A stretch of DNA of 63,932 bases, the filler included, from Chrysochromulina tobinii (lineage: Eukaryota), in assembly GCA_001275005.1 (NCBI GenBank). It is 8 parts of 8 records of this genome, joined end to end, with 100 filler letters (N's around TTAATTAATTAA, not from the genome) between each part and the next. Parts side by side here need not be neighbours in the genome. Positions count along the whole stretch, not along the records: positions 48,544 to 62,123 come from JWZX01000230.1; 7 more parts are not named here. One strand, 5' to 3'. The stretch's first letter is position 1; each line of letters opens with the position of its first letter. Shown here piece by piece: positions 48,444-63,073 of the stretch. A program made the position numbers and the translations under genes. The notes beneath the pieces were generated by a model. The model saw only the letters and a list, made by a program, of their open reading frames with translations, ran no database searches and was not told the origin of the DNA.

Positions 48444-48838
48444 NNNNNNNNNNNNNNNNNNNNNNNNNNNNNNNNNNNNNNNNNNNNTTAATTAATTAAN
48501 NNNNNNNNNNNNNNNNNNNNNNNNNNNNNNNNNNNNNNNNNNNACTCAGTACTTGTGTAGACCGAGGGGAGCGGAGCCGTCCGTCGAGACGGTGGTGGAG
48601 TGAGCGTGGGGGGACCGCGAAGAAACTGAAAACTGAACACGACGCACCTGCCAGCGGTTCACGAAGTGTACGCTCGACTAGTCTATCCAAAATCTCGGCG
48701 CCATGCTGTTCCCCACACGTCTGTGAAATAGAGTCGCCGGGGTCGACCCGCGTAAGAGTCCCTCGGTTTTTTGCTGACCCAACGTGCTCATGTTTCCCGT
48801 GATCGGCTTCGTTCACGGGATTCTTATCTCGCCTCGCG

Positions 48839-51800
48839 ATGCCGACAGTCCTTCTTGCTGCCCTCGCCGCCGCGCTCGCGGACGCGCCGCCGCGCATCTT
48901 CGACCACATTTCGGTCACGGCGAGCGCCTCGTGGGCCAACGATCCCATCATCGAAGCGGCATCACTTCTCTACGGCGAGCTCGGCGGCCGAGGCGTGGCG
49001 TGGTTCCTCAAGGGCGTCGCAGGCCAACCCGGTTGTGAGGACGTGCGCTGCGCCGCCAGGGCGATCAGTTCGCTGAGCTTGCCGCCGCTTCAGGTCCGTG
49101 CGCTCGGCGCCGCTCTGGCCGCGCGGGTGGAGGCGCCCAAGGTGGAGGCCTGGGCGCAGCTCGCGGCCGCCGTGCCGGGCTCCTCACCCGACCGTGGAGC
49201 GCTCGCGCACGCGGCCGTGTGGCTCTGCACGTGCGACGGGCGCATCCACGTGGAGGTGGAGGATGCGCTGGCGGCGCTGGCAGTGCTCGTTGACTCACCC
49301 GAGGAGTGCCGCGAGGCGAGCGCCAGCGCCGTGCCCGCGGCGCTCGACCACGCGTTCGACAACGACAACGCGGGCGGACGCAGGAGCGCGGACGCCATTT
49401 CCACAGCTCCGTTACTGATCGCGTACGTCGACCCGCACGCCGGGGCTGCGATGGGCGCGGCAATGGCGGCGCTACTCGCCGTGCCACCCGCCACCGCGCG
49501 CATCGTGCTGCGCTACCGTCCCTCGGCCGCCGTTAGCCCGGTGCCTCTTCAGGGCTTTGGGACGGTCGTGCGGCTGAAGGCGTCCGAGTACAAGGTGGTG
49601 GACGACCGCGGCGTGGAGGCGGCGGCCGATGCGGCCGACGAGAGCGACGACGATGCCGTCGAGGGCGAACCGGCCGGAGGAGACGAGGCGCCTTCGTTTC
49701 TGCTGCGCAAGCGAGCGGGTGAGCCGCTCGTCGCGTGCATGCTGATTGCCTCCCTCATTGCGAGCGGGTGAGCCGCTCGTAGTTGCGACGGCGGTCACGC
49801 GAGTGCATGCTGATTGCCTCCCTCATTGCACGCAGGTGAGCCGCTCGTTGGCGACGGCGGCGACGGCTCGAGCCTCTCCGCCGCACGGCTTGGCGCTCTG
49901 AGCATGCAGGCGGCGGTGGCGGTGCTGCGCGCGCGCCGGCCGTTACCGACGCTCCGGGACGTGAGCGGGTTGCTCCCAAGCCTCGCACGAGCGCTCTCGC
50001 GCATTAATTTGAGCTCACCTGCCCACGAACCCCTCGTACGCTCGCTCGTGACGAACCCCTCGTGACGAACCCCTCGTGACGAACCCCTCGTGACGAACCC
50101 CTCGTGACGAACCCCTCGTGACGAACCCCTCGTGACACACTCCGAGCAATGCTGCTACCAGCATGCTAACTGCCGCTGATGGCCTGCCTGATTACCTCCC
50201 TCATCAGGTACGCTCGCTCATCGCGATCCGGCCGCTTTTGCAATCAGCATGCAACTCACTGCTGCTCAACGGCTTACCAATCGACCTCACCCGTGCGGAC
50301 TTGGCCCCTCTGATTACCTCTGATTACCTCTGATTACCTCTGATCACCTCTGATTACCTCTGATTACCTCATGCGTGTGGCCTTGGCGCCTCGAGCGCGC
50401 CTCCCATCCCACCACCCGCGATTGCATGCTGAGCGCACCTCCCATCCCTCCCTCATTGCATGCAGGTGCGGACTTGGTGCAGCACACGATGAAGCTCGTG
50501 CTCACCGAGGCGAACACAGCGGCCCAGCTCGTGCAGCTCGGCTTGCGCCCAACTGTCGTGAGCGCGCTGCTCACGACGGCGCCCCCGCCCCCGGTGCGCA
50601 TCGACGCCCGCAGCCTCGAGAGCGCCACGCTCTGGCTGAGTGACCTGAGCGCGCCTAATTTGGATGGGGGCTTCAAAACATGGCCCTCGGATCTAAGCTC
50701 GGCGCTTAAAAAGGGCCTTCGGGGCGCGCGCCAGTTCACAAGGCATAACCTGTTCACAGCCATCTTCGCCTTCGACCCGGCGACGATGCACGGCGCGCGC
50801 ACGGCCGGCTACGTGGCGACCATCCTGAAGCGGAGCGCGCCTCTTCGGATTGGGGTGCTTGCTCGCTCGGCGGACGGTAACGGAGATTCCAATCTGGCCA
50901 CGCGCGCTCTCGCGGGCACTTGCATGCTGATGGCCCCTGATTGCCCCCCTCCCACCCTCCCTAACTAGGTAGCGGAGATTCCAATCTGGCCACGCGCGCT
51001 CTCGTGCACTTGCATGCGGTGGGGGGCAAGGCGGCACTGATCGCTTTCCTGCGCACCCTCGGCGCACGGGCGGGGGCGGCAGTTGGAGCGCCGCGGCGGG
51101 CACCCGAGCTGGCGGCAGCACCGGTGGACGCAGCCGAGGAGGGGGACGCGGCGGGGGCGGACGAAAGTGATGCGCTGGCTGCAGCAAACACGGACGGCGA
51201 CGCGCAGGCGGAGGCGGGGAGCGCTCAGGACGACGCGACGACGGTGGCCGAGGGCGATGCGCGTCGTACTGAGCGTGCCTCCGCTGTTCTTGAGCCGACG
51301 GTCCCACGGCAGGTGCTCGTGATTGCATGCTGATTGCCTCCCTCATTACCAGCTCTTGAGCCGACGGTCCCACGGCAGGTGCTCGTGATTGCATGCTGAT
51401 TGCCTCCTTCATTACCAGCTCTTGAGCCGACGGTCCCACGGCAGGTGCTCGTGGACGCTGTGGCGGCGGCGCTCGAGGTCATCGCGGGGGGCGCCAAGGG
51501 GGGAGGAGGAGGCAAGAAGGGCAAGAAGCGCAAGGCCAAGTCGGCGGCGGCAGAGGAGGAGGCGACGGCGTCGGCAGGCTCGGAGGCGGCGAATGCCACG
51601 GACGGTAGCCGCCCGGCACGGCGCGCGGAGGAGGTCCTCCTGCAGCTCGGCATGATCGGCGAAGGCATAGGGCTCGAGGCCGCCGAGCGTGTGGAAGCCA
51701 TGGACTTGGCCGCCAACCTGCTCGGGCTACCTGCCTCCCTACCCGTCGCCCTTCTCAACGGACTGGTGCTGATCCCCGAGGCGCCCATTACGGCGCTCTC

Positions 51801-54800
51801 AGGCGAGGCGCTCTGGGGGGAGATGATTGCACTTGCAATCACGAGAGAAGCTCAGGTGATTGCATCCCTCATCAGGCGGCGATCGTGCAGTACGATTGGC
51901 CGTCTGATTGCGTCTGATTGCGTCTGATTGCGTCTGATTGCGCTCACGAGAGAAGCTCAGTTTGTCCGTGCGCTCATCGAGGAGGGCGCCCTGATGATTG
52001 CCTGTGATGGCCTCTGAGGACCTCTAATCGCCACTGTCATCAGGTTGTCCGTGCGCTCATCGAGGAAGGTGCCCTGAGCGATGGCGCCAACCTTACCGGC
52101 ACCGAGGCGACGGCGAGATCGGGCGAGATGCATAGTGCGAGATCGGGCGAGCTCCATAGTGCGCTGCTCGAGGTGCTCATGTCAAGGGGGAAGGTGGCGC
52201 CCTTTTATTCTGCACAGCTCGCAGTAGCTGCCAAGGAGGAGACTGTGCGCGATGCCATCCGTGCGGCGGGGGCGGCGGCGGGTGGAGAGGCGGATGGGCA
52301 GGCAGCGCCGTATTGGGCGGATGGGCAGGCAGCGGCGAGCGGCAAGGCGTCTGCGGCAGCAGAGGCGACCCAGTTGGCGGGAGTGGTACGCATGCACGGG
52401 GAGCGATTGGATTGGCGAGCGCTTGCATGCTGATGGCTTCTTAATGGCTTCTGATTGCCCTCCTCCTACCCTCCCTAATTAGGTACGGGTCCTCGAGGAG
52501 CGCGTATGGAATCCCGAGTCGCCTTCGAATGTGCATGCCGACTCGCGCCGACTGCATGCACGCCGGCTGGTGCTCAACCCTAATTTGGAACGCTGTGCTC
52601 GAGAGGGGAGCTGCCTCGAGATTGCGGGGATAGGGGATGGCGCCGCGCTGCACTTGGTTGCGATCGTCGATCCTCTCACGGTGCAAGCGCACAAGATAGC
52701 TGCCCTGCGGATCGCATGCTGATTACCTCCCTCATTACCTCGGCAGGTGCACGCGCACAAGATAGCTGCCCTGCTGATCGCTCTGCGGGAGGAGATGCAT
52801 GCACGCGTGACGCTCCTCCTCGCACCGAAATCTCCGCCGAGCTCCGACGATCTCGCCGAAGGCGCCGTGATGGGCAGCCTTTGGTCCCCCGAGCCATCCG
52901 CTGCCTCGATGCCCCTCGATGCCTTCCACAGGTGATTGCTCTGGATTGCTCTGGATTGCTCTGGATGGCTCTTGATTGCGCATGATTGCGCATGATTGCT
53001 CTTGATGGACCCTTGATGGCTTTTGATGGGATGGGCACGTCTCTCTCTATCTCTCTCTCCGCGTTCCACAGCTTCGCCGTGCAGCTCGATCCGCTCAAGA
53101 CGGCGCCTCCCGCGGCCACCTTTGAGATGTTTCGGCCGAGGGCGCCGCAGACGCTCACGCTCACGCCCGAGGCGCCACCAGGTGATTGCATCTGATTGCG
53201 TCTGATTGCGTCCCTCATCAGACGCTCACGCTCCGCCCGAGGCGCCACCAGGTTGGGTGATGACGATCTCCGCCGCGAGCTCCGACCTCGACAATCTGCG
53301 GCTGCACACGCTACAGTCCAGCCAGTCCGTGCATGCAGCCTACTCGCTCAGCGCCTTGCTTGTCACCGGAAAGTGTGTGGATCGCTCGGGGGGTGGTGTC
53401 GGCGGTGCCAAGGGCGGCGGCGGCGGCGGCGGCGGCGGCGGCAAGAAGGCAGCTCATGGCAAGAAGGGTAAGCAGCAGCGGCGGTGGCGAGGGAGCACTG
53501 ATGACCTCTCTAATTACCTCTGATGGCCTCTCTAATTACCTCTGATGGCCTCTCTAATTACCTCTAATGGCCTCTCTAATTACCTCTGATGGCCTCTCTA
53601 ATTACCTCTGATGGCCTCTGCACGACTCTGAGGGTGGCCAACACTGATTGCCCCTTTCATCAGGCAAGCGGCGGCGCGAGATGACCGAAGCGGATGCGGA
53701 TGGGCACGCCGCCTCCGCCGGAGGGAATGCATGCACAGCGGCGGCCCTCGAGCTGCATCGGGCGCTCGGTACGGCGCTCACTACGGCGCGAGCTCCGACG
53801 GCCGAGATGGGCGCGAGCCGCGATCTCGTCAATCTCGTCAATCTCGTCCACGCGCCCGCTTCGGATACCCTCGTCATCGGCTCCGAGTATGCGCTGCACC
53901 CCGACTGCACCCCGATCGACCTCTGGCATGTCTCGGCGCATGCACGTGCTCACCACGGCGCCCTGCCCCCCCCCTCCCCACAGGTACTTTCAATTGCAGG
54001 CGCCGGGGCCTGGGCTGTGGTCAATCTCGCTCGCCTCCGGCGCCGAGCTCCTGAGCGCCCGCCACGGCGCCGCTACAGGCGCCCGCTACGGCGCCGCCGT
54101 CCCGGGCAGCCGTTACGCCGCGCCTCCGGCCCGCGCCCTCCCCGTGCCGCTCCTCTCGTATACCGGTGCGACGCTCGACATTCTCGTCGGCGCAGACCCA
54201 AATCATGGCTTGAGCACACGCACCACCGCCGCCCCGGCTCTCGCCGCCGCCCCCGCCTCCGCCGCCGCCGGTACGGCGCTCGACGAAACAGTCCACATCT
54301 TCTCCCTCGCATCGGGGCTGCTCTATGAGCGCTTCCTACGCATCATGATGAAGACGGCCGTTGAGCGCGCGAGCCGCCCACTGAAGTTTTGGATCCTTGG
54401 CAACTTCCTCTCGCCCGCCTTCCGTCACGCTGTGAACAGCGGCGCGCTCGCAACGGCCGTTGGCGCTCAGGTGATTGCATCCCTCATCAGGTGGCGATCG
54501 TGCTCTACGATTGGCCGCCTGAGTGCGTCTGAGTGCGCCCGAGTGCGTCTGATTGTGGATGATTGCGTCCCTCATCAGGTGGCGATCGTGCAGTACGATT
54601 GGCCGTCTCACCTGCGAGAGCAGACGGAGAAGCAGCGGCTCATCTGGGGGTACAAGATCCTGTTTCTCGACGTGCTCTTCCCACAGGTGAAAGGCGATGA
54701 TTGCGATGGAGTCCGACGAATCTCCGATGAATCTCCGATGGATCTCCGACGAATCTCCGATGGGCTGTCTCGTCCTCACCTTGCCTTCATCGCAGTCGCT

Positions 54801-56125
54801 CCGCAAGATCATCTTCGTCGAGGAGCTGATTGCCTCTTGATTACCTCTGATGAGCCCTAATTGCCTCCGTCGCAGTCGCTCCGCAAGATCATCTACGTCG
54901 ACGCGGATCAAATCGTCCAGGGCGACCTCGCAGAACTTTGGGATAGGTGATTGCCACGGAAGGACACTAATGGGCACCCTGATTGCCACCCTGATTGCCG
55001 CCCTGATTGCCATCCTGATTGCCATCCTGATCGTCCAACGGGACCTCGCCCCTGATTGCCACCCTGATGACCTCCGATGCTCCCCAATGTGGCACTTCAC
55101 ACCCAACCGAACTTCACACCCAACCGAACTTCACACCCAACCGAACTTCACACCTTTGCGGCAGGCCTCTCCTCGGCGCTCCGGTGGCCATGACGCCCTT
55201 TTGCCGCGCCGACCCAAATATGGCAACCAAGGGCTTCCGCTTTTGGGAGACCGGCTTCTGGGCAGGCGCGCTCGGCGGCAAACCATACCACATCTCCGCG
55301 CTCTTCGTCGCGGATCTGGCCGCCTTCCGATCGATTCGGGCAGCAGGGGGGGCGAGCGCGCCGTCGTGGGCAAGCGAGCAGGGCGTGGGTGACATTTACC
55401 GGTCGACGTATCAGTCGCTCACAGCTGACCCGAGCTCGCTTGCCAACCTCGACCAGGACTTACCCAACTACCTGCAGGGCATGGTGATTGCGTCTGATTG
55501 CGTCTGATTGCGTCCCTCATCAGGACGTACCCAACTACCTGCAGGGCATGGTGATTGCGTCTGACTGCGTCTGATTGCGTCCCTCATCAGGTGCCCATCC
55601 ACTCCTTGCCCGAGGAGTGGCTCTGGTGTGAGTCCTGGTGCGGCAACGCCTCGCAGTCCGCTGCGAAGACGATCGACCTGTGTAACAACCCGATGACCAA
55701 GGAGCCCAAGCTTGAGCAGGCGAGGCACTCTTCATTACCCTTGATTACCCTTGATTGCTCTTAATTAACCCGATGACCAAGGAGCCCAAGCTCGAGCAGG
55801 CGAGGCACTCTTGATTACCCTTGATTACCATTGATTGCTCTTAATTAACCCGATGACCAAGGAGCCCAAGCTTGAGCAGGCGAGGCACTCTTGATTGCTG
55901 TGGATTGCTGTGGATTGCTGTGGATTGCTCTTGATTGTACTTGATTGCGCTTGATTGCTCGGGCAGGCGAGGCGCATCGGAGGGGAGCGCTGGGCCAAGA
56001 TCGACGCCGAGCTCGAAGCCGCCCTCGGGGGGGGAGCCTCCGCCGCGGTAGGTTCTGAAGGTGGCGCTCACGGCGGCGCGAATATGTCACCATCGGCAGC
56101 ACTCATGGAGAAGACGGAGCTCTGA
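48839..56125 (+). CDS. UGGT: UDP-glucose:glycoprotein glucosyltransferase, 18 exons, ~1625 aa
   Basis: Signal peptide; [103 protein letters not shown]-terminal KTEL. Introns 49719-49835, 50036-50207, 50293-50465, 50877-50968, 51313-51444, 51856-52043, 52386-52482, 52681-52746, 52932-53071, 53182-53251, 53468-53663, 53887-53983, 54471-54578, 54687-54875, 54947-55164, 55484-55590 and 55720-55966 (GC-AG) give one continuous frame. Confidence 0.95.
55484..55590 (+). mobile_element. Two copies of the 40-nt intron module GTGATTGCGT(CTGATTGCGT)2CCCTCATCAG around a duplicated exon end
   Basis: Copies at 55484-55523 and 55551-55590, near-identical copy at 53182-53221, and a 20-nt form at 51856-51875 and 54471-54490. 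Mobility is inferred. Confidence 0.55.
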
Positions 56126-56332
56126 CGCACCGCTGGAAACGTGAAAGTGACCACTTACGTTTTACGAGTTCGGAACTTACCCCGTGGGTTATAATCCTCG
56201 GGCCGATCATCTTCTCATAATGACGACAAATGCGTCGTTCCCCAGCCGATGCAGGCTACATTGTTTTGAGCACGGATGTGCGAGCTTGGCTTTTTTGTGA
56301 GAAAAAAAAAGGGTTCACACGAACGAGTCTCC

Positions 56333-57610
56333 ATGGCTTCCCAGAGCCCACAAGACCCATGCATGGACGAAGATACCATGGCAAGGCAGTTCCCGCGCCT
56401 GCAAGGCGCCGGCATGAGCGGCCCACTAGGAGCAGGCGGCTACGCTAGCGGCGAACACATCGGCTCATCGAATGCCCGGGCGCGTGCCGCCGCGAGCATG
56501 AACACGGTCTGCACAGCCACGGAAGTGGAAGCAGTTCTCGACATCGACGCAGTTGAAGTGGAAGCAGTTGATGACATGGACGACTCCATCGAGGTTGAAG
56601 TTGTACTCGTTGACGAGTCCCGGATGGACACAGGCTCCTCGTCGACGCCACGAGTTTCGACAGATGACGTGCAGCACCTCAGGGCGATCAAGGCAAGGGC
56701 TGCCGCGGCAGCGGAGGGGCTGGAGCTGGTGCCGTCGTCGAAGAACCAGACGGGCTTCAAGGGCGTGACCTTGACTCGTGGCAGGTACTATGTGGACGTC
56801 TGTGAGAACGGCATGACGCGCCACCTCGGGGGCTTTGCAACGCGAGAGGAGGCAGCCTTGTGCTATGCAAGGCACATTGGGGCGGAGCGAGCGGCGGCAG
56901 AGGCGGCGAAAGAGAGAGGCGAGGGGCTGAATACGACAAAGCCGCTCACAGCAGATGAGGCCAGGGCTGCCGCGGCAGCGGAGGGGCTGGAGCTGGTGCC
57001 GTCGTCGAAGAACCAGACGGGCTTCAAGGGCGTGACCTTGACTCAGGGCAGGTACAACGTGGACGTCTATGAGAACGGCAAGCAATCACGCAACTTTGGC
57101 GGCTTTGCAACGCCAGAGGAGGCAGCCTTGTGCTATGCAAGGCACCTTGGGGCGGAGCGAGCGGCGGCAGAGGCGGCGAAAGAGAGAGGCGAGGGGCTGA
57201 ATACGACAAAGCCGCTCACAGCAGATGAGGCCAGGGCCGCCGCGGCAGCGGAGGGGCTGGAGCTGGTGCCGTCGTCGAAGAACCAGACGGGCTTCAAGGG
57301 CGTGAACTTGATTGGTGGCAAGTATTACCTGCAAGTCTATAAGAACGGCAAGCAATCACGCAACTTTGGGGGCTTCGCAACGCCAGAGGAGGCAGCCTTG
57401 TGCTATGCAAGGCACCTTGCGACGGAGCGAGCGGCGGCAGAGGCGACGGGTGAGGGGCCACAGCCGCTCACGGTGGATGAGGCGAAAGAGATTGATGGGA
57501 GGCACACCTCAGGACGCGGCTCTCTACAACCCGTTGAACATCCCGCGCCGCCTGGTCCGAGTTGTGAACGTGAACATCCCGCGCCGCCTGGTCCGAGCAG
57601 TTCCGAATAG
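56333..57610 (+). CDS. Protein with three tandem AP2/ERF-like DNA-binding domains
   Basis: TGFKGV...GRY.V....G....LGGFAT.EEAALCYAR three times, ~270-bp near-identical repeats. Confidence 0.8.
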   Translation: MASQSPQDPCMDEDTMARQFPRLQGAGMSGPLGAGGYASGEHIGSSNARARAAASMNTVCTATEVEAVLDIDAVEVEAVDDMDDSIEVEVVLVDESRMDTGSSSTPRVSTDDVQHLRAIKARAAAAAEGLELVPSSKNQTGFKGVTLTRGRYYVDVCENGMTRHLGGFATREEAALCYARHIGAERAAAEAAKERGEGLNTTKPLTADEARAAAAAEGLELVPSSKNQTGFKGVTLTQGRYNVDVYENGKQSRNFGGFATPEEAALCYARHLGAERAAAEAAKERGEGLNTTKPLTADEARAAAAAEGLELVPSSKNQTGFKGVNLIGGKYYLQVYKNGKQSRNFGGFATPEEAALCYARHLATERAAAEATGEGPQPLTVDEAKEIDGRHTSGRGSLQPVEHPAPPGPSCEREHPAPPGPSSSE

Positions 57611-57748
57611 CGCCCGTTTGACGAATAGCGCCCGTTGGACGAATTGCGCCCGTTGGACGAATAGCGCCCGTTAGACGAATTGCGCCCGTTGGACGAATAG
57701 CGCCCGTTTGACGAATTGCGCCCGTTGGACGAATAGCGCCCGTTGGAC
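57605..57748. repeat. 18-bp tandem repeat GAATWGCGCCCGTTDGAC x8
   Basis: Read directly; the first unit contains the stop codon of the AP2 gene. Confidence 0.9.
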
Positions 57749-58709
57749 GCACTCCGCAGCTGCAGCCCACTGTTCACGGCTAACCCTAGCCCACTGTTCA
57801 CGGCCAACCCTAGCCCACTGTTCACGGCCATGCACGACGAGCAGCGCAAGCAGCAAGGATCGTCTTCATTCTTGGCGCCGTCGCCTGCGCTGCCACCATC
57901 CACCGTCATTTGGCGCACATCGAACAAGCGGCCGGTTGCAGAGGCCTTTGGAGATCTCGGCCTTTTGGAGATCTCGGCCTCTGGAGATCGGGGCTGGCCA
58001 CAAACGATGGGTCTCTCTCTGCAAGGCAATGAGCGCAAGCAGCAACATCCAACGCGGCAGCAGCTGCTCTCAGTCCGGCAGGAGGAGCAGGTGCTCATGC
58101 AGCTACAGCCCATGGCACCTGATGAGCAGTGCCCTCTACATATGCTGTGGGAATAGTAGCCCAATAGTAATAAATAGTAATGCCCCAAATGCGGCGGCAA
58201 GCGAGGACAACCCCCGACACCGGCTCAGCAACCGCGATCGGAGCCCGTTGCGGCGCCTCCCTTGCCCTTGTTTTTCAACTACACCGCTATTCCGTTTTCC
58301 GATTCTTTTGCACTGGTCTGTGTCGGGACGGCAGGGGCTAGCGACGAGCGTGCTGGTCTGAACGGAACGAGGCGGGGGGTCGAACCCGAGGGGGGGACAC
58401 ACAGTGACACAGAAGAGTTTCGAATTGGTATTGGAGACGTCTGGAATGGCCGCATTACTGAATGGCCGATGCAACTTCCCCCGGTTGCCGCCGTGCAAGC
58501 GTGCACCGTCCGGAGCGATAAATATACTTTATAGCGTGACCTACGCACAAAGGCGTATACGTTACATGAGGAAAAGAAATAGGATACGGTATCAGAGTGT
58601 AATAAAGATACATCAACTCATCAAGCAGTTGTGCATCAATTTGGTATTTGCAGAGATACGGCGCGCAGATTCTGTCCGGTCGGCGGCGGATTACTCGAGG
58701 ACATGCCAC

Positions 58710-58942
58710 TTGACCCAAGGGGGAGTGGTCTACTATATTTTTCATGTTTATAAGGCCCCACCCCTACACCTGTTTGGGAATTGAATGGTTGACCCAAGGG
58801 GGAGTGGTCTACTATTTTTCATGTTTATAAGGCCCCACCCCTACACCTGTTTGGGAATTTGAATGGTTGACCCAAGGGGGAGTGGTCTACTATTTTTCAT
58901 GTTTATGAGAAGGCCCTAACCCCACACCTGTTTGGGAATTGA
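58710..58942. repeat. ~78-bp tandem repeat x3
   Basis: TTGACCCAAGGGGGAGTGGTCTACTAT...CACCTGTTTGGGAATT at 58710, 58789 and 58867. Confidence 0.9.
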
Positions 58943-59618
58943 AATTTGAATGGCTCGAGGAACGCGCGTTTTATAAACGCGATGCCGACCGAGAAATATA
59001 TGTCTTATGTGTAATGTCGTATACGCAAAACGGTGAATCAAAATCGCCGCCCCGACGCCTACATAAGCCGAATCCGCCTCAATCGTGCCGCGCCGAAATT
59101 TCCCCGGTACTAGCCGAGAGGCAGCTCTACGGGCCTATACACATGCGGTCACGTGACAGCCCGACCGTCGACGTCGACACGTCGGCATAGTATCGCGCCG
59201 GCATAACGCCGCGTCTACCTCACTGCATCGCATGCAACACAAAGACTCACAATCTCGCGCAGCACACTCACAACGCACCGATGTCTCGTGGCACGACCCC
59301 GCGCCGTGCGCTCTCATCCCCCCCCACAGGATCTCCCCTGGATCTCCCCTGGATCTCCCCTGACCTCCCCTGGATTTCCCATCTCTCCCGAGGTCTCCGG
59401 AGTATCTCTATGCTGCGAACCGCACGAGATCGCGCACGAGTTCGCGCACGAGATCACATCCTCGATTTGGTCTGACTCTCGCACCGTCCGCGCGGCAGAG
59501 CAAATTCCGTTACGAATTCGTCAAATTCCGTTACGAATTCGTCGTCGGCCGATCCGTAAGCAGGTAAGCAGGTGCGCCTGCGCCGAGATCAACCCCGACG
59601 CTACCCGACCCGACCAGC

Positions 59619-60740
59619 TCAGATCAGAGACGAGTCCGGTGGCGGTGGCGGTGGTGGCGAAAAGGGGGCTCCGAACTGGCTGAACCCGCCAGGCGGCGGT
59701 GGCGGAGGGGAGGCGAACGACTCGCCGAAGCCCGCCCCGAACGACGGGGCCGACGCGAAACCAAACGTCGGGTCGGGCGGCGGGGGAGGCGGGGGCTCGC
59801 TGAAGTTGAACATATCGTTGGGCGCCGCCGCGGCGCCTCCCGCGCCCGGCGGCATCGCCCGAATCATGTTGGCGTAGGCCTGCTTGAACTTTTGTGAGCC
59901 CTGCTTCTCGAGCTCGACTTTGTACGTCTTGTTCGCGGCGTCGAACGATTTGATCCAACCGATCGACTCGGACCCATCGCTCCTCTTGACGTAGACGGCA
60001 TCGCCCACGTTGAAGCCCGGGGCGATGCCCGAGGTCGAAGGCCTCTTGCCCTTGACCGCTTTCGACTCCCGAAGTGCCTCCTGCGACACAACCTTGTACA
60101 GGCACGTGCCAGCGTCGTCTTCGTCCTCGAGCTCGACACGGTAGAGGCCCGTCTGCCTGTCGTACTCGACGACGCATCCGATCGACTCGTCCCCGCTGCT
60201 GCGCATGCAGTACACCATTTGGCCGACGGCGAAGCGCTGCAGCCGCAGTGGCTCTTCCAGATTCCGGTTTGGCAAGGGTTCGGAGGGTGACTCATTTTGG
60301 TTCGATGTGGAACGGAGCTCGTATCCGGCCATCGCGAGTCCCGAGGAAGCCAGGTTGCCGGCCGTGGAAACCCCTGACGCCGCCGCCGCCGCCGCCGCCG
60401 AAGCAGCAGCAGCCGCGGCCTTTGCTACCGCAGTAGGGTCCTTTGCGGCGTTGGCCGCAGCAGCGGCGGCGGCAGAGGCTGTGGCAGCGGCAACGGACGA
60501 GGCCGAGGAGGCCAGGCCGCCGGCCATCGCCAATCCCGAGGAGGCAAAAGCTGAGGCTCTCTCGGCCGCACTTTGGTAAGTGGGGAGCTGCTCATCTGGG
60601 TTATCTTCATTCTCAAACGCAGGGTTCGAACTGTCGGACCTGTCGACGAGGGTGCCAATGACGGTGTCACTCTTCGACTTGCGCCGCATGGATTTTGCCC
60701 GGAAGCTGCCCGAGCGAGCCAGGCTGATGAGGGACGACAT
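59619..60740 (-). CDS. Hypothetical protein with two Tudor/SH3-like beta-barrel repeats and Pro-rich tail
   Basis: FAVGQMVYCMRSSGDESIGCV and FNVGDAVYVKRSDGSESIGWI. Confidence 0.65.
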   Translation of the reverse strand: MSSLISLARSGSFRAKSMRRKSKSDTVIGTLVDRSDSSNPAFENEDNPDEQLPTYQSAAERASAFASSGLAMAGGLASSASSVAAATASAAAAAAANAAKDPTAVAKAAAAAASAAAAAAASGVSTAGNLASSGLAMAGYELRSTSNQNESPSEPLPNRNLEEPLRLQRFAVGQMVYCMRSSGDESIGCVVEYDRQTGLYRVELEDEDDAGTCLYKVVSQEALRESKAVKGKRPSTSGIAPGFNVGDAVYVKRSDGSESIGWIKSFDAANKTYKVELEKQGSQKFKQAYANMIRAMPPGAGGAAAAPNDMFNFSEPPPPPPPDPTFGFASAPSFGAGFGESFASPPPPPPGGFSQFGAPFSPPPPPPPDSSLI

Positions 60741-61032
60741 GCTCCGAGCTGACGCGGCGGTGTCGGCGGCGACGGCGCTGATCCCCTTTCGCGGCGGCAC
60801 CCCCGGCTCGTCACACTTGATGACGAGACACAGCCGACGGACGTTCACAAGAAAGGTGTTAAACGATGCACGACCTTTTCAACTGTGAATTGGTGCCTAC
60901 TCGGACTTTCGGTACAGTCGTTTCACACCTGTGAGCAACCTCATCATCCCCCAAGACTTCGTCCAACGAAACCGGTCCGCGGCTTCGCCTCTTACATTGT
61001 AGAGGCGCGCTTCCCTTTGGACGACGTGCAGA

Positions 61033-61767
61033 ATGAAGCTGCGCCTCCTCTGCCTACATTCTTTTCGGCTCTCCGGCGATTCGCTGCGCAAGCAGATGGC
61101 CGTATTCTCCAACTTTGCGTCCAGCATCGACGACATTTGCGAGCTGCACTACATGGACGGGAGCTTGCGCTGCGACGCCGAGGCAGAGGGCAAGCTCCCT
61201 CCGATGCTCAAAAAGGCTTTCGGCCCGCCGTACTACGAATGGTGGAATGCTCGACAGCACCACGACTCGGATGCTCTCGTGTACGACGGCATGCAAGCGA
61301 CGCTCGACAAGGTAGCGGCTCACGTGGCCGCTGAGGGACCGTTCGACGGCGTCCTCGGCTTCTCGCAGGGAGGATCCCTCGCCCATCTGCTGTGCGTGCT
61401 CGCGCAGCGCGGAGCCATCTCCATGCCGCCGTCACTGTTCTGCGTGGTCATCTCTGGACGAGCATCCCGCCACCACGAGCATTTGGAGCTCATGGAGGCG
61501 GCACGCAAGGCACCGTTGAAGCTTCCCTTGTGCGTCATTTACGGCGGGAAAGACACCGAGGTGCCGCCGCAAGAGACGCGGGCGCTCATGGAGACGATCG
61601 ATGAGGCGTCCCTGTGTACGATCTTCTTGCCCGAGGGCGGCCATCGAGTACCAAATCTCAACGAAGCGCAGGCGCAAGCGGTCCGCGCATTCCTCGAGGC
61701 GCGGCGCGATCAGATGGAGAGCGCCAATCTTGAGATGTGTATGGGCGGACCCGGAGGCCCAACATAG
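61033..61767 (+). CDS. FSH1/OVCA2-family serine hydrolase
   Basis: LRLLCLHSFR, GPFDGVLGFSQG, GGKD, GGHRVP. Confidence 0.92.
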   Translation: MKLRLLCLHSFRLSGDSLRKQMAVFSNFASSIDDICELHYMDGSLRCDAEAEGKLPPMLKKAFGPPYYEWWNARQHHDSDALVYDGMQATLDKVAAHVAAEGPFDGVLGFSQGGSLAHLLCVLAQRGAISMPPSLFCVVISGRASRHHEHLELMEAARKAPLKLPLCVIYGGKDTEVPPQETRALMETIDEASLCTIFLPEGGHRVPNLNEAQAQAVRAFLEARRDQMESANLEMCMGGPGGPT

Positions 61768-62000
61768 TGAGTGTGTGAAAAACGAGACGTTCACACTGAA
61801 TTCTGTTCGTTCCTCGGCGTTCTTCGCTCCGAACCCGGCCCAAAGGATTTGCTAAGAACAATCTTCGAGTGATTCGCACAAGTTGGCAGAAAAAGATGGG
61901 TGTGGGCTTCAACGAGGACAACTTTGCGCCTGAAGCTTGAAGGCATGACAGGCTTGAGAGGGGCTGCGAGAGTTACCGGCACAGTTTTAGTTGAGGTTAT

Positions 62001-62116
62001 TGCTCAACACGGATCTAATAGTCACACCACATGCTCAACACGGACTTAGCAAGTCCGTGTTGAGCTAAGTCCGTGTTGGGCATATTCACAGCTCACTAAG
62101 TCCGTGTTGAGCATAT
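62001..62116. repeat. Direct and inverted GCTCAACACGGA motifs with a perfect 15-bp hairpin
   Basis: GCTCAACACGGACTT-AGC-AAGTCCGTGTTGAGC at 62033-62065; five motif copies next to the contig end. Confidence 0.75.
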
Positions 62117-63073
62117 GGTTTTTNNNNNNNNNNNNNNNNNNNNNNNNNNNNNNNNNNNNNNNNNNNNTTAATTAATTAANNNNNNNNNNNNNNNNNNNNN
62201 NNNNNNNNNNNNNNNNNNNNNNNGCTGCCTGTTCGCAGCTCAAGCCCTCGCTCCACGCTAGCATCTCTCGCAGCCTGTAGGCCTCATCTGACAGAGGGAG
62301 CACCTCTCGTAGTCTGTTGGCCTCCTCCGAGGGAGGGTCGAGCTGCAATGCAGGGTTCCTGCTGGGCATGGCAGGGGCAGTTGTTGTGGGCCCCATAAGT
62401 CGCAGGGGAGGAGCAGCAGGGCCGCAGAGGAGCGCCGCTGCCGCTCGCTTTCGGCTGCGTCCAGGACCCAACGGGTCGAGCCCACTGCACATGTCCTGGA
62501 TCTTGCTCTGGGCAGAGGTGGCGGCGTCGGATGCGGTTGTTGAGATGGGGCTGGGTTGCGCTCGGGATCTGCGACCTCTTCCAGCACAGAGATTGCGCGT
62601 TGCATTGCTCGCTCTGCATGGTGAGTTACGCTGGTCTCCGCGTCAGCTCTGTCTGCTGCGCGCGGACACAGGGTATCGTGAGCGGAGCGAGATGTGGTGA
62701 CGCGCGGGGGGGCCGGGGCAACGGAGAGCGCGCGTATGTGACTGTGTGCACGCCCGCCCCAGGCGCGTGCGCGCGCCATCGCCAGAGAGTGCTGCGCGCA
62801 ACAACAGCAGTGGGACGCACCCGACATGGATGCGAACGGATTCTCCAGCTCGAACAGCTCCCTTTGAAACACACCGATACGACGCGCGCTTCGCCCATAG
62901 GAATTCCATCACACAAACCCAGATACAACCCTGCCCAGGACGTCCCCCACACCCCACTCCCAGCGCCCCTCCCCGCGCTACTGTACCGGTACGGGCCTTC
63001 GGCGCGCGCGCGGGTCCTCAGCGCGGCACACAGGGTTGTGTAAGTGTCGCGCGAAAACGCCTCGTGTAAACTC

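Follow-up and report, generated by a model that had tools for sequence, protein, structure and literature searches.

The window, i.e. the whole stretch of 63,932 nt of Chrysochromulina tobinii DNA that was analyzed, encompasses a gene for UDP-glucose:glycoprotein glucosyltransferase (UGGT), for which a model with 17 introns generates a single open frame of 1625 aa and with which the intron numbering of the initial annotation agrees. The Pfam domain PF18404 was detected above cut-off in four C-terminal exons and PF18402 above cut-off in exon 4, and the best named match is that of Prymnesium parvum (63%). Ten of the 17 introns are spliced in RNA contigs, with nine introns (including 4, 6, 7, 8 and 10) being removed at GT..AG within positions 49600-53750, and no splicing was seen in these contigs for introns 5, 11-15 and 17. 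The initial placement of reads was dominated by matches to a short intronic sequence (named “module”) belonging to other loci, and three freshwater runs with no sequence words in common were left aside. The features referred to below are the following:

48839..56125, plus strand: UGGT gene, 18 exons, 1625 aa, C-terminus KTEL
49719..50465, plus strand: introns 1-3 (49719-49835, 50036-50207 and 50293-50465), spliced in RNA
50877..50968, plus strand: intron 4, GT..AG splicing in one RNA run
50919..50927, plus strand: 9 nt common to the exon copy and the module, a string that runs on into the intron 7 module at 52422
50969..51017, plus strand: start of exon 5, from which the duplicated stretch in intron 4 derives
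51313..51444, plus strand: intron 5, made of two 66-nt rounds in tandem, each an exon copy spanning CAG/GT plus module
51850..51855, plus strand: 6-nt exon-side overlap GCTCAG, identical to the last exon bases ahead of intron 13 (54465-54470)
51856..52043, plus strand: intron 6, spliced in four of four RNA runs
52172..52173, plus strand: empty site GAG/GTG, where a sister species has an exon copy and module
52386..52482, plus strand: intron 7, spliced in three of four RNA runs
52681..52746, plus strand: intron 8, spliced in four of four RNA runs, exon copy up to 52715, then module
53182..53251, plus strand: intron 10, spliced in four of four RNA runs
54471..54578, plus strand: intron 13, putatively the donor from which intron 6 obtained its 5’ half
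54687..54875, plus strand: intron 14, an existing intron whose 3’ splice site is straddled by a duplication and module, the exon beginning with TC
55484..55590, plus strand: intron 16, module, upstream exon copy and module, skipped by one RNA contig

Introns 1-3 each start with 12-13 nt copied from the following exon. Intron 4 opens with a copy of the beginning of the downstream exon (50877-50927), the rest being an AG-ending module (50928-50968), and the open reading frames (ORFs) of 14 of the 15 listed relatives read into this intron, with one diverging just inside it. In intron 6, the 5’ half matches part of intron 13, the middle repeats the exon 6/7 junction without a break and the 3’ half is a second module. 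The tail of the intron 8 module resembles intron 5, and intron 10 is made up of a 40-nt GT..AG module, matching that of intron 16 over 31 nt, and a copy of the upstream exon end, the two being joined over CAG. Intron 16 occupies an older intron position and represents a tandem duplication there: relatives carry module sequence at this position from which the exon copy is absent, a distant relative has an insert there, and positions 16 and 17 are common to distant relatives. An inverted 16-nt piece of the module is also present in coding exon 3 (3 of 300 shuffles).

The initial annotation had described short overlaps between exon copies and modules at individual junctions. This was borne out for intron 4, where the exon copy ends with CTTGCATGC and 9 nt are common to the exon copy and the module, because an exact 16-nt match to intron 7 starts at 50919 (52422 in intron 7); this match is present in none of the 119 other loci among those listed. 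The 3 nt (GTG) assigned to intron 5 are indeed common to exon copy and module, and the terminal module CAG of introns 10 and 16 is, as had been stated, identical to the exon CAG located just before the copied stretch, this shared CAG not being at the splice site in use. The GTG of intron 16 does overlap, but weakly, since two of its three bases represent the obligatory GT donor, and the GC given for intron 8 exists but was stated too short: past one mismatch, the exon copy extends through GATCGC (52710-52715), which is also the start of the module. When the same exon was cut at other places as a control, overlaps of at least 3 nt occurred by chance in 13% (left) and 17% (right) of cases, so that GTG, GC and CAG are not significant singly, while those of at least 8 nt round to 0-1%.

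Across the class, the comparison with chance expectation that had been suggested revealed longer overlaps at both junctions. It involved 127 module-carrying sequences from loci chosen by one motif (at least 138 loci), with 16 of 135 loci being removed as redundant or non-algal. The mean left overlap was 1.83 nt versus 1.06 nt by chance (47 scorable of 102 junctions; p as low as 20,000 draws can give), following removal of 15 of 117 events (copy shorter than 12 nt, too little exon, or, for three, mis-called by eye). The mean right overlap was 2.66 nt versus 1.27 nt (47 scorable of 58), following removal, from 80 events, of 13 terminal-CAG junctions, 7 self-complementary repeats and 2 duplicates. 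The mean excess amounts to only 0.6-1.4 nt, with about half of the left junctions being unscorable; 55 of 102 left junctions do not begin in common module sequence, as is expected from fillers or rare variants. Exons preceding type-A copies tend to end in G and AG, a bias which is explained by splice-site selection and was therefore not counted as microhomology.

The exon duplications measure 9-55 nt (117 events) and the inserts 18-281 nt; shorter duplications fell below the search floor and a short-duplication subset may exist. In a mirror class the 5’ splice end is fixed and the 3’ end variable, with duplications of 13-68 nt (80 events, before cleaning). Moving away from the AG, module conservation dwindles over about 35 nt, with at most 0.25 bit beyond 36 nt, and the family has neither an element body nor a fixed 5’ end. 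No Rfam match was obtained at E up to 1 within positions 49600-56100, and no terminal inverted repeats of modules were found among the best 25 (longest) inverted repeats in the 45-60 kb interval; the module tail is the 7-nt reverse complement of the repeat unit, with no fixed 5’ end to pair with. A first viral scan returned no matches, and two matches to a viral collection were dismissed as chance matches in low-GC sequence. Drift of intron copies toward a better donor site is weak (4 G>A changes at position +3 in 98 events).

Considering that similar module sequence is found in introns at at least 138 loci, along with the observed splicing and the filled and empty sites, the family represents introners in the broad sense. 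Being a high-copy intron family in which one splice site derives from the duplication, it resembles introners described in the cited part of PMC9860276, some of which occur in Chrysochromulina. A classical introner, whether a miniature transposon moving by cut and paste or an intron that was excised and then inserted again by reverse splicing, is nevertheless scarcely credible: a MITE-like element would generate a fixed duplication of 3-9 nt instead of 9-55 nt, and would have defined ends and near-constant length rather than inserts of 18-281 nt, while reverse splicing, which inserts a whole intron cleanly according to the portion of PMC4540971 referred to here, is at odds with partial copies, long duplications and matches to the donor’s exon. 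This reading is largely refuted, and the earlier statement that a DDE transposase is not responsible agrees with the above-chance microhomology, variable duplications, fillers and locally templated pieces. A SINE-like non-autonomous retroelement, inserted by target-primed reverse transcription with a fixed 3’ end and a truncated 5’ end bearing microhomology, is very improbable, even though one fixed and one variable end, variable duplication and junction microhomology are LINE-1 hallmarks in the relevant section of PMC10760644, since there is no tail and no conserved body as from a master transcript, and no Rfam match within positions 49600-56100, the mirror class has the opposite polarity, the copies bear locus-private exon pieces and derive from nearby introns, and the duplications are often longer than the <20 bp cited there for LINE-1. 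According to the same section, truncated LINE-1 insertions carry 5’-junction microhomology, and microhomology alone therefore does not single out repair.

Comparison with a sister species identified filled and empty sites in both directions. Intron 6 is absent from all ten sister-species ORFs covering its site. At 52172..52173, the empty allele of the window is matched by DNA and RNA contigs, and nine of ten covering sister ORFs contain an insert, as seen at the protein level only; the sole exception (P0158) may be an assembly collapse. Parsimony and protein-level read-through point to gain rather than loss at such sites. One relative has an uninterrupted ORF across 14 aligned positions on a 29-kb contig. 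Five pairs of overlapping loci (L003/L005, L051/L114, L019/L026, L012/L049 and L094/L109) display no presence/absence of introns, and two of these differ in repeat number. It might be argued that the introns are old and that exon copies and shared variants were generated afterwards by tandem duplication and gene conversion among them, given that introns 14 and 16 have clearly been rewritten in place, that intron 16 of relatives lacks the exon copy, that distant relatives, too, have positions 16 and 17 and that tandem re-duplication is common. The reciprocal filled and empty alleles, the uninterrupted ORF of the relative, the 178 of 249 downstream exons which begin with GT and the shared tracts which begin at recipient junctions render this improbable.

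The origin of the copied sequences could be followed in a minority of cases. Private module variants are common to 7 of 349 same-locus, same-strand pairs as compared to 20 of 30,414 between-locus pairs (listed loci, rarity-weighted), and at least 4 nt of the downstream exon are also common in 7 of 9 sharing pairs versus 40 of 218 (p 3e-4). This exon-side test, based on nine pairs from seven loci, gives p at most 0.0016 in eight settings, and the extension of the match into the donor’s exon implies that the template was unspliced. In L120, L028 and L033 the shared tract starts at the recipient junction, with an overlap of 3, 4 and 1 nt, respectively, and in L039 a whole intron, together with its donor’s own exon copy, is found again 2,868 nt upstream within the same gene. 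Within UGGT, intron 6, which has private matches of 26 and 28 nt, contains sequence peculiar to intron 13 and exon 14, and introns 4 and 7 have in common a rare tail, in both followed by GTA, the pattern of which occurs in one of 119 other listed loci; from these sequence matches, intron 7 is likely the donor of the intron 4 module. Overall module-end similarity is no higher within than between loci (15.5 versus 15.6), only the rarity-weighted test separating near from far; only a small tail of pairs shares locally, and most of the other donors may be distant.

The same copying could start from unspliced RNA, with a reverse transcriptase or an RNA-using repair polymerase switching template on the gene’s own or a neighbour’s pre-mRNA and the product then entering the locus. 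The donors that could be resolved are mostly in the same gene and on the same strand, and an unspliced template suits pre-mRNA equally with DNA. Template switching also uses microhomology. It is named as a model in the cited part of PMC3443670. An RNA template is nonetheless rather unlikely: a private variant is common to opposite-strand genes 8-13 kb away (6-13 kb for such sharing as a whole), sharing beyond 1.5 kb involves 8 of 714 same-strand versus 4 of 436 opposite-strand pairs, the module piece in exon 3 is inverted, and donors are situated on both sides, upstream and downstream, of recipients. Same-strand and opposite-strand sharing do not differ discernibly, however (p 0.5), and the nascent RNA of a neighbouring gene would be close by as well.

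We consider it probable that new introns are made by microhomology-primed, repair-type DNA synthesis which copies nearby introns. That DNA repair drives the insertions, as had been proposed, fits the above-chance microhomology, the 9-55 nt duplications, the fillers and the local templates, yet microhomology by itself is insufficient, and it is the local donors and the matches crossing the donor splice site that tip the balance toward repair. Synthesis would start at a nearby intron, whose splice junction offers a few matching bases for priming; part or all of this intron would be copied, and the target would be rejoined by means of a second short overlap, thereby duplicating 9-55 bases of exon. 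The initiating event may be a break or a template switch, corresponding to two offset nicks or to a nascent strand leaving and returning upstream; the direction from donor to recipient, the DNA template and a polymerase-theta-like chemistry are likewise presumed. Purifying selection would retain only products which read GT/GC..AG. The same process may also rewrite existing introns (14 and 16), and each new intron may act as the next donor, in which case no autonomous element would be required for the family to spread locally. As in TMEJ, MMEJ and template switching, overlap is above chance and, in a minority of events, inserts are templated nearby. In the cited part of PMC5730883, TMEJ at staggered breaks generates tandem duplications with microhomology and templated inserts, and cNHEJ makes tandem duplications too. 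Tentatively, and with somewhat less assurance, these events may amount to a transposon-free, genome-wide burst of intron gain, in which whole or partial copies enter nearby exons and a local chain reaction of donors yields an introner-like family.

The origin of new intron sequence is an open question, and the Daphnia study left most sources untraced according to the part of PMC4202315 considered here, while a recent survey, in the corresponding part of PMC12130899, holds that no mechanism other than introner transposons can account for bursts of gain. Since donor, recipient, both junctions and empty alleles are readable in a single organism for which both DNA and RNA data exist, repair-driven copying becomes directly testable, and the present observations suggest that, among introner families that have no inverted repeats, some may be something other than transposons. 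None of the papers listed has a title or abstract opening that matches this module family or local microhomology-primed intron copying, and the supplements of introner surveys may list the family.

Among known systems, each as portrayed in the cited parts of the sources, the intron gains of Daphnia pulex by staggered double-strand-break repair (PMC4202315) are similar in their flanking direct repeats of adjacent exon, repeated internal duplication and lack of a transposon; their repeats measure 4-12 bp and most insert sources are stated as unknown, whereas here the repeats are 9-55 nt, the inserts are traceable to introns and microhomology is present at both ends. The intron 5 type, with both splice sites from the duplication, is akin to tandem AG/GT duplication, and the presence of intron sequence at a new position to intron transposition or transfer (PMC3443670); unlike in those models, the duplication and the end of another intron are here copied in one junction-to-junction event at non-homologous sites. 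Variable duplication and one truncated end with microhomology are reminiscent of LINE-1/SINE target-primed reverse transcription (PMC10760644), from which the family differs by having no tail, no master element, both polarities and private local donors. Polymerase theta end joining and paired-nick duplications (PMC5730883, PMC7407515) are comparable in their offset ends, short microhomology, and templated and untemplated inserts, with templates mostly near the break there and 0.2-13 kb away here. Introners (PMC9860276, PMC12130899, bioRxiv 10.1101/2020.10.14.339549) likewise consist of many related introns genome-wide, with the duplicated target supplying one splice site or both, yet they have fixed 3-9 nt duplications, defined ends and often inverted repeats, whereas the introns described here combine variable duplications and ends with partial or chimeric copies and local donors.

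The window comprises eight contigs with N-linkers between them, and 12 of its 16 module segments (the module being a sequence shared among introns and joined through a few overlapping bases to a duplicated exon stretch, or exon copy) fall in the gene for UDP-glucose:glycoprotein glucosyltransferase (UGGT; 48544-62123 versus the other contigs). Under a 17-intron model this gene reads in a single frame of 1625 aa with a KTEL end, and its exons match domains PF18404 and PF18402. Among named relatives the best match comes from Prymnesium parvum (63%), which makes a haptophyte the probable host. RNA contigs jump nine introns at GT..AG within 49600-53750 and also intron 16, in total 10 of the 17, and one DNA contig, which may share the window's source, matches 51916-53211 without difference. 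The next ORF holds three repeats of 267-270 nt and an 18-nt tandem array (56552-57448 and 57586-57783). The gene and the introns whose overlaps were re-examined are:

48839-56125, + strand, UGGT gene
50877-50968, + strand, intron 4
51313-51444, + strand, intron 5
52681-52746, + strand, intron 8
53182-53251, + strand, intron 10
55484-55590, + strand, intron 16

The initial annotation had reported junction microhomology in these five introns, and each overlap was found again. That of intron 4 measures 9 nt by comparison with intron 7, and the GC overlap of intron 8 is present, with a size of about 6 nt where 2 had been stated. The GTG overlap of intron 16 is also present but counts for little, since the donor GT is part of GTG. 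In introns 10 and 16 the CAG overlap has an internal position and is thus not imposed by splicing.

A short overlap taken singly carries no information, and the module class was assessed as a whole. A motif scan gave at least 138 stretches, 16 redundant or non-algal loci were taken out, and the test set, drawn from the matches listed, comprised 127 sequences (730 kb), the window contigs among them. Among the matches listed, these sequences hold at least 432 module ends, at 231 of which downstream sequence is copied upstream, versus 90 of 1,275 swapped controls; 117 events are clean, with copies of 9-55 nt and inserts of 18-281 nt. Overlaps were scored with module words taken from other loci, against a null in which the same exon was cut elsewhere. 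At left junctions, among the matches listed, overlap was 1.83 nt versus 1.06 nt for the null (47 scorable of 102), with at least 3 nt in 14 of 47 versus 13%, and a larger dictionary gave 2.18 versus 1.54 nt (60 of 102). For mirror events, in which the upstream exon end is copied (58 kept from 80 among the matches listed), the values were 2.66 versus 1.27 nt (47 scorable of 58), with at least 3 nt in 22 of 47 versus 17%. Every p value for left and mirror overlap is the lowest that 20,000 draws allow. The microhomology is therefore longer than chance would give, the point on which the initial annotation had made its reading depend, and the excess is modest.

Modules cluster strongly by gene. Their conservation is strong across the last 20 nt and fades by about 35 nt, into repeats of 10-12 nt. 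The module lacks two defined ends and has no match in Rfam, and a SINE-like insertion is very improbable. The module acts like one end, 3′ or 5′, of some other intron. Intron 12 (53887-53983) represents a second family of high-copy intron ends, of very high summed DNA depth and with relatives in three other loci (L055, L062, L063) and window contig 3. At one further locus (L133) the module lies on a 1.6-kb contig that was binned with a bacterial genome and is probably a contaminant from the alga.

Locus-private variants are common, among the matches listed, to 7 of 349 same-strand and 0 of 113 opposite-strand pairs within a locus, and to 20 of 30,414 pairs between loci; a segment-based count over the matches listed gave 17 of 1,577 versus 100 of 88,877, four being opposite-strand and 6-13 kb apart. 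In raw similarity no difference of this kind was found, so local sharing concerns a minority of recent events. Seven of nine pairs with a common private variant also match at least 4 nt of the downstream exon start, versus 40 of the remaining 218 pairs (p 3e-4, stable across 8 settings; matches listed). An excised intron would not carry these exon bases, and the template was thus unspliced. The direction of copying is indicated by a donor intron in an AAA-ATPase gene (locus L039): its first part repeats the exon downstream of it, and the entire intron is found again in that gene 2,868 nt further upstream, ahead of an unrelated exon and with overlaps at both ends.

Within the UGGT gene, the first 26 nt of intron 6 are identical to the exon end before intron 13 together with that intron's first bases, the next 28 nt are exon 14 sequence that occurs in 0 of 119 other loci (matches listed), and introns 4 and 7 have a rare tail in common, with GTA after both. 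An internal AG is gone from the intron 13 exon copy and kept in the exon and the intron 6 copy (54471-54578 versus 51856-51905), as if a cryptic acceptor had been removed once the copy was made. Exon 6, directly upstream of intron 6, has a short module-like inverted repeat (51823-51842). The same copying from an RNA template is unlikely: opposite-strand sharing leans to DNA, and so does a 16-nt reverse-complement module copy in the RNA-confirmed coding exon 3 (50239-50254), possibly an in-frame inverted templated patch (a 15-nt antisense match arose in 3 of 300 codon-order shuffles). We lean towards a DNA template.

For the sister-species comparison, ORFs were called on genomic contigs (84-86% identical). 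All 10 sister ORFs read through the intron 6 site and continue into intron 7, and in 9 of 10 the site 52172|52173, empty in the window, is filled by a 14-residue exon copy and module translation. This sister-species evidence for intron gain is at the protein level, with polarity from parsimony. On a 29-kb contig of a 52% relative, a single uninterrupted ORF runs across 14 aligned intron positions. In the sister-species ORF cluster, a further duplication of exon copy plus module sits where intron 7 begins. Against gain alone, distant relatives also have inserts at positions 16 and 17, intron 16 in close relatives lacks the exon copy, and intron 14 shows rewriting at a 3′ splice site that was already present. 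That existing introns were only remodelled is nevertheless quite improbable, since the common tract begins at the recipient junction in three loci (overlaps of 3 nt in L120, 4 nt in L028 and 1 nt in L033), which argues against later conversion. One process both creates introns and remodels them. Intron 2 contains, at 50036-50140, seven 14-nt tandem units of upstream exon end plus GT, a product of local slippage or repeated templating; intron 15 has, between module repeats, a short piece resembling the upstream exon about 100 nt away (55024-55049); and in intron 17 (55720-55966), modelled as GC-AG with splicing not observed, exon copy and module recur in three rounds of 80 nt.

We regard microhomology-primed copying of neighbouring introns by repair-type synthesis as moderately probable. 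A 3′ end set free at an offset break or by stalled synthesis would anneal, via 3-9 nt, at a nearby intron's splice junction, copy 20-100 nt, and rejoin the target 9-55 nt away via a 0-9 nt overlap or filler, the offset thereby duplicating an exon stretch; products reading GT/GC..AG would survive. Downstream exons start with GT in 178 of 249 cases among the matches listed. The proposal that DNA repair drives these insertions is thus extended and upheld in part, by the overlap excess, the duplications and the local donors, while microhomology itself is not repair-specific. The contrast drawn with DDE transposases is incomplete, because truncated LINE-1 ends are, as described in PMC10760644, likewise marked by microhomology.

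Reverse splicing failed its tests, the copies containing exon bases, and so did a transposon introner. The local donors also weigh against reading the family as a mobile element. A classical introner, which would duplicate a fixed 3-9 nt as reported for transposon introners, is barely credible given duplications of 9-55 nt; the 2022 survey (PMC9860276) describes a Chrysochromulina introner family with 4-bp duplications. In the 2025 introner survey (PMC12130899), the words microhomology, haptophyte and Chrysochromulina are absent from the main text. In mouse cells, offset nicks are reported to give duplications of the type proposed here, which under polymerase theta show microhomology and templated inserts (PMC5730883). 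The events described here resemble the staggered-break intron gains of Daphnia (PMC4202315) combined with intron transposition (PMC3443670), and differ from the former in that the Daphnia repeats, with sources given as mostly unknown, are 4-12 bp, compared with 9-55 nt here.
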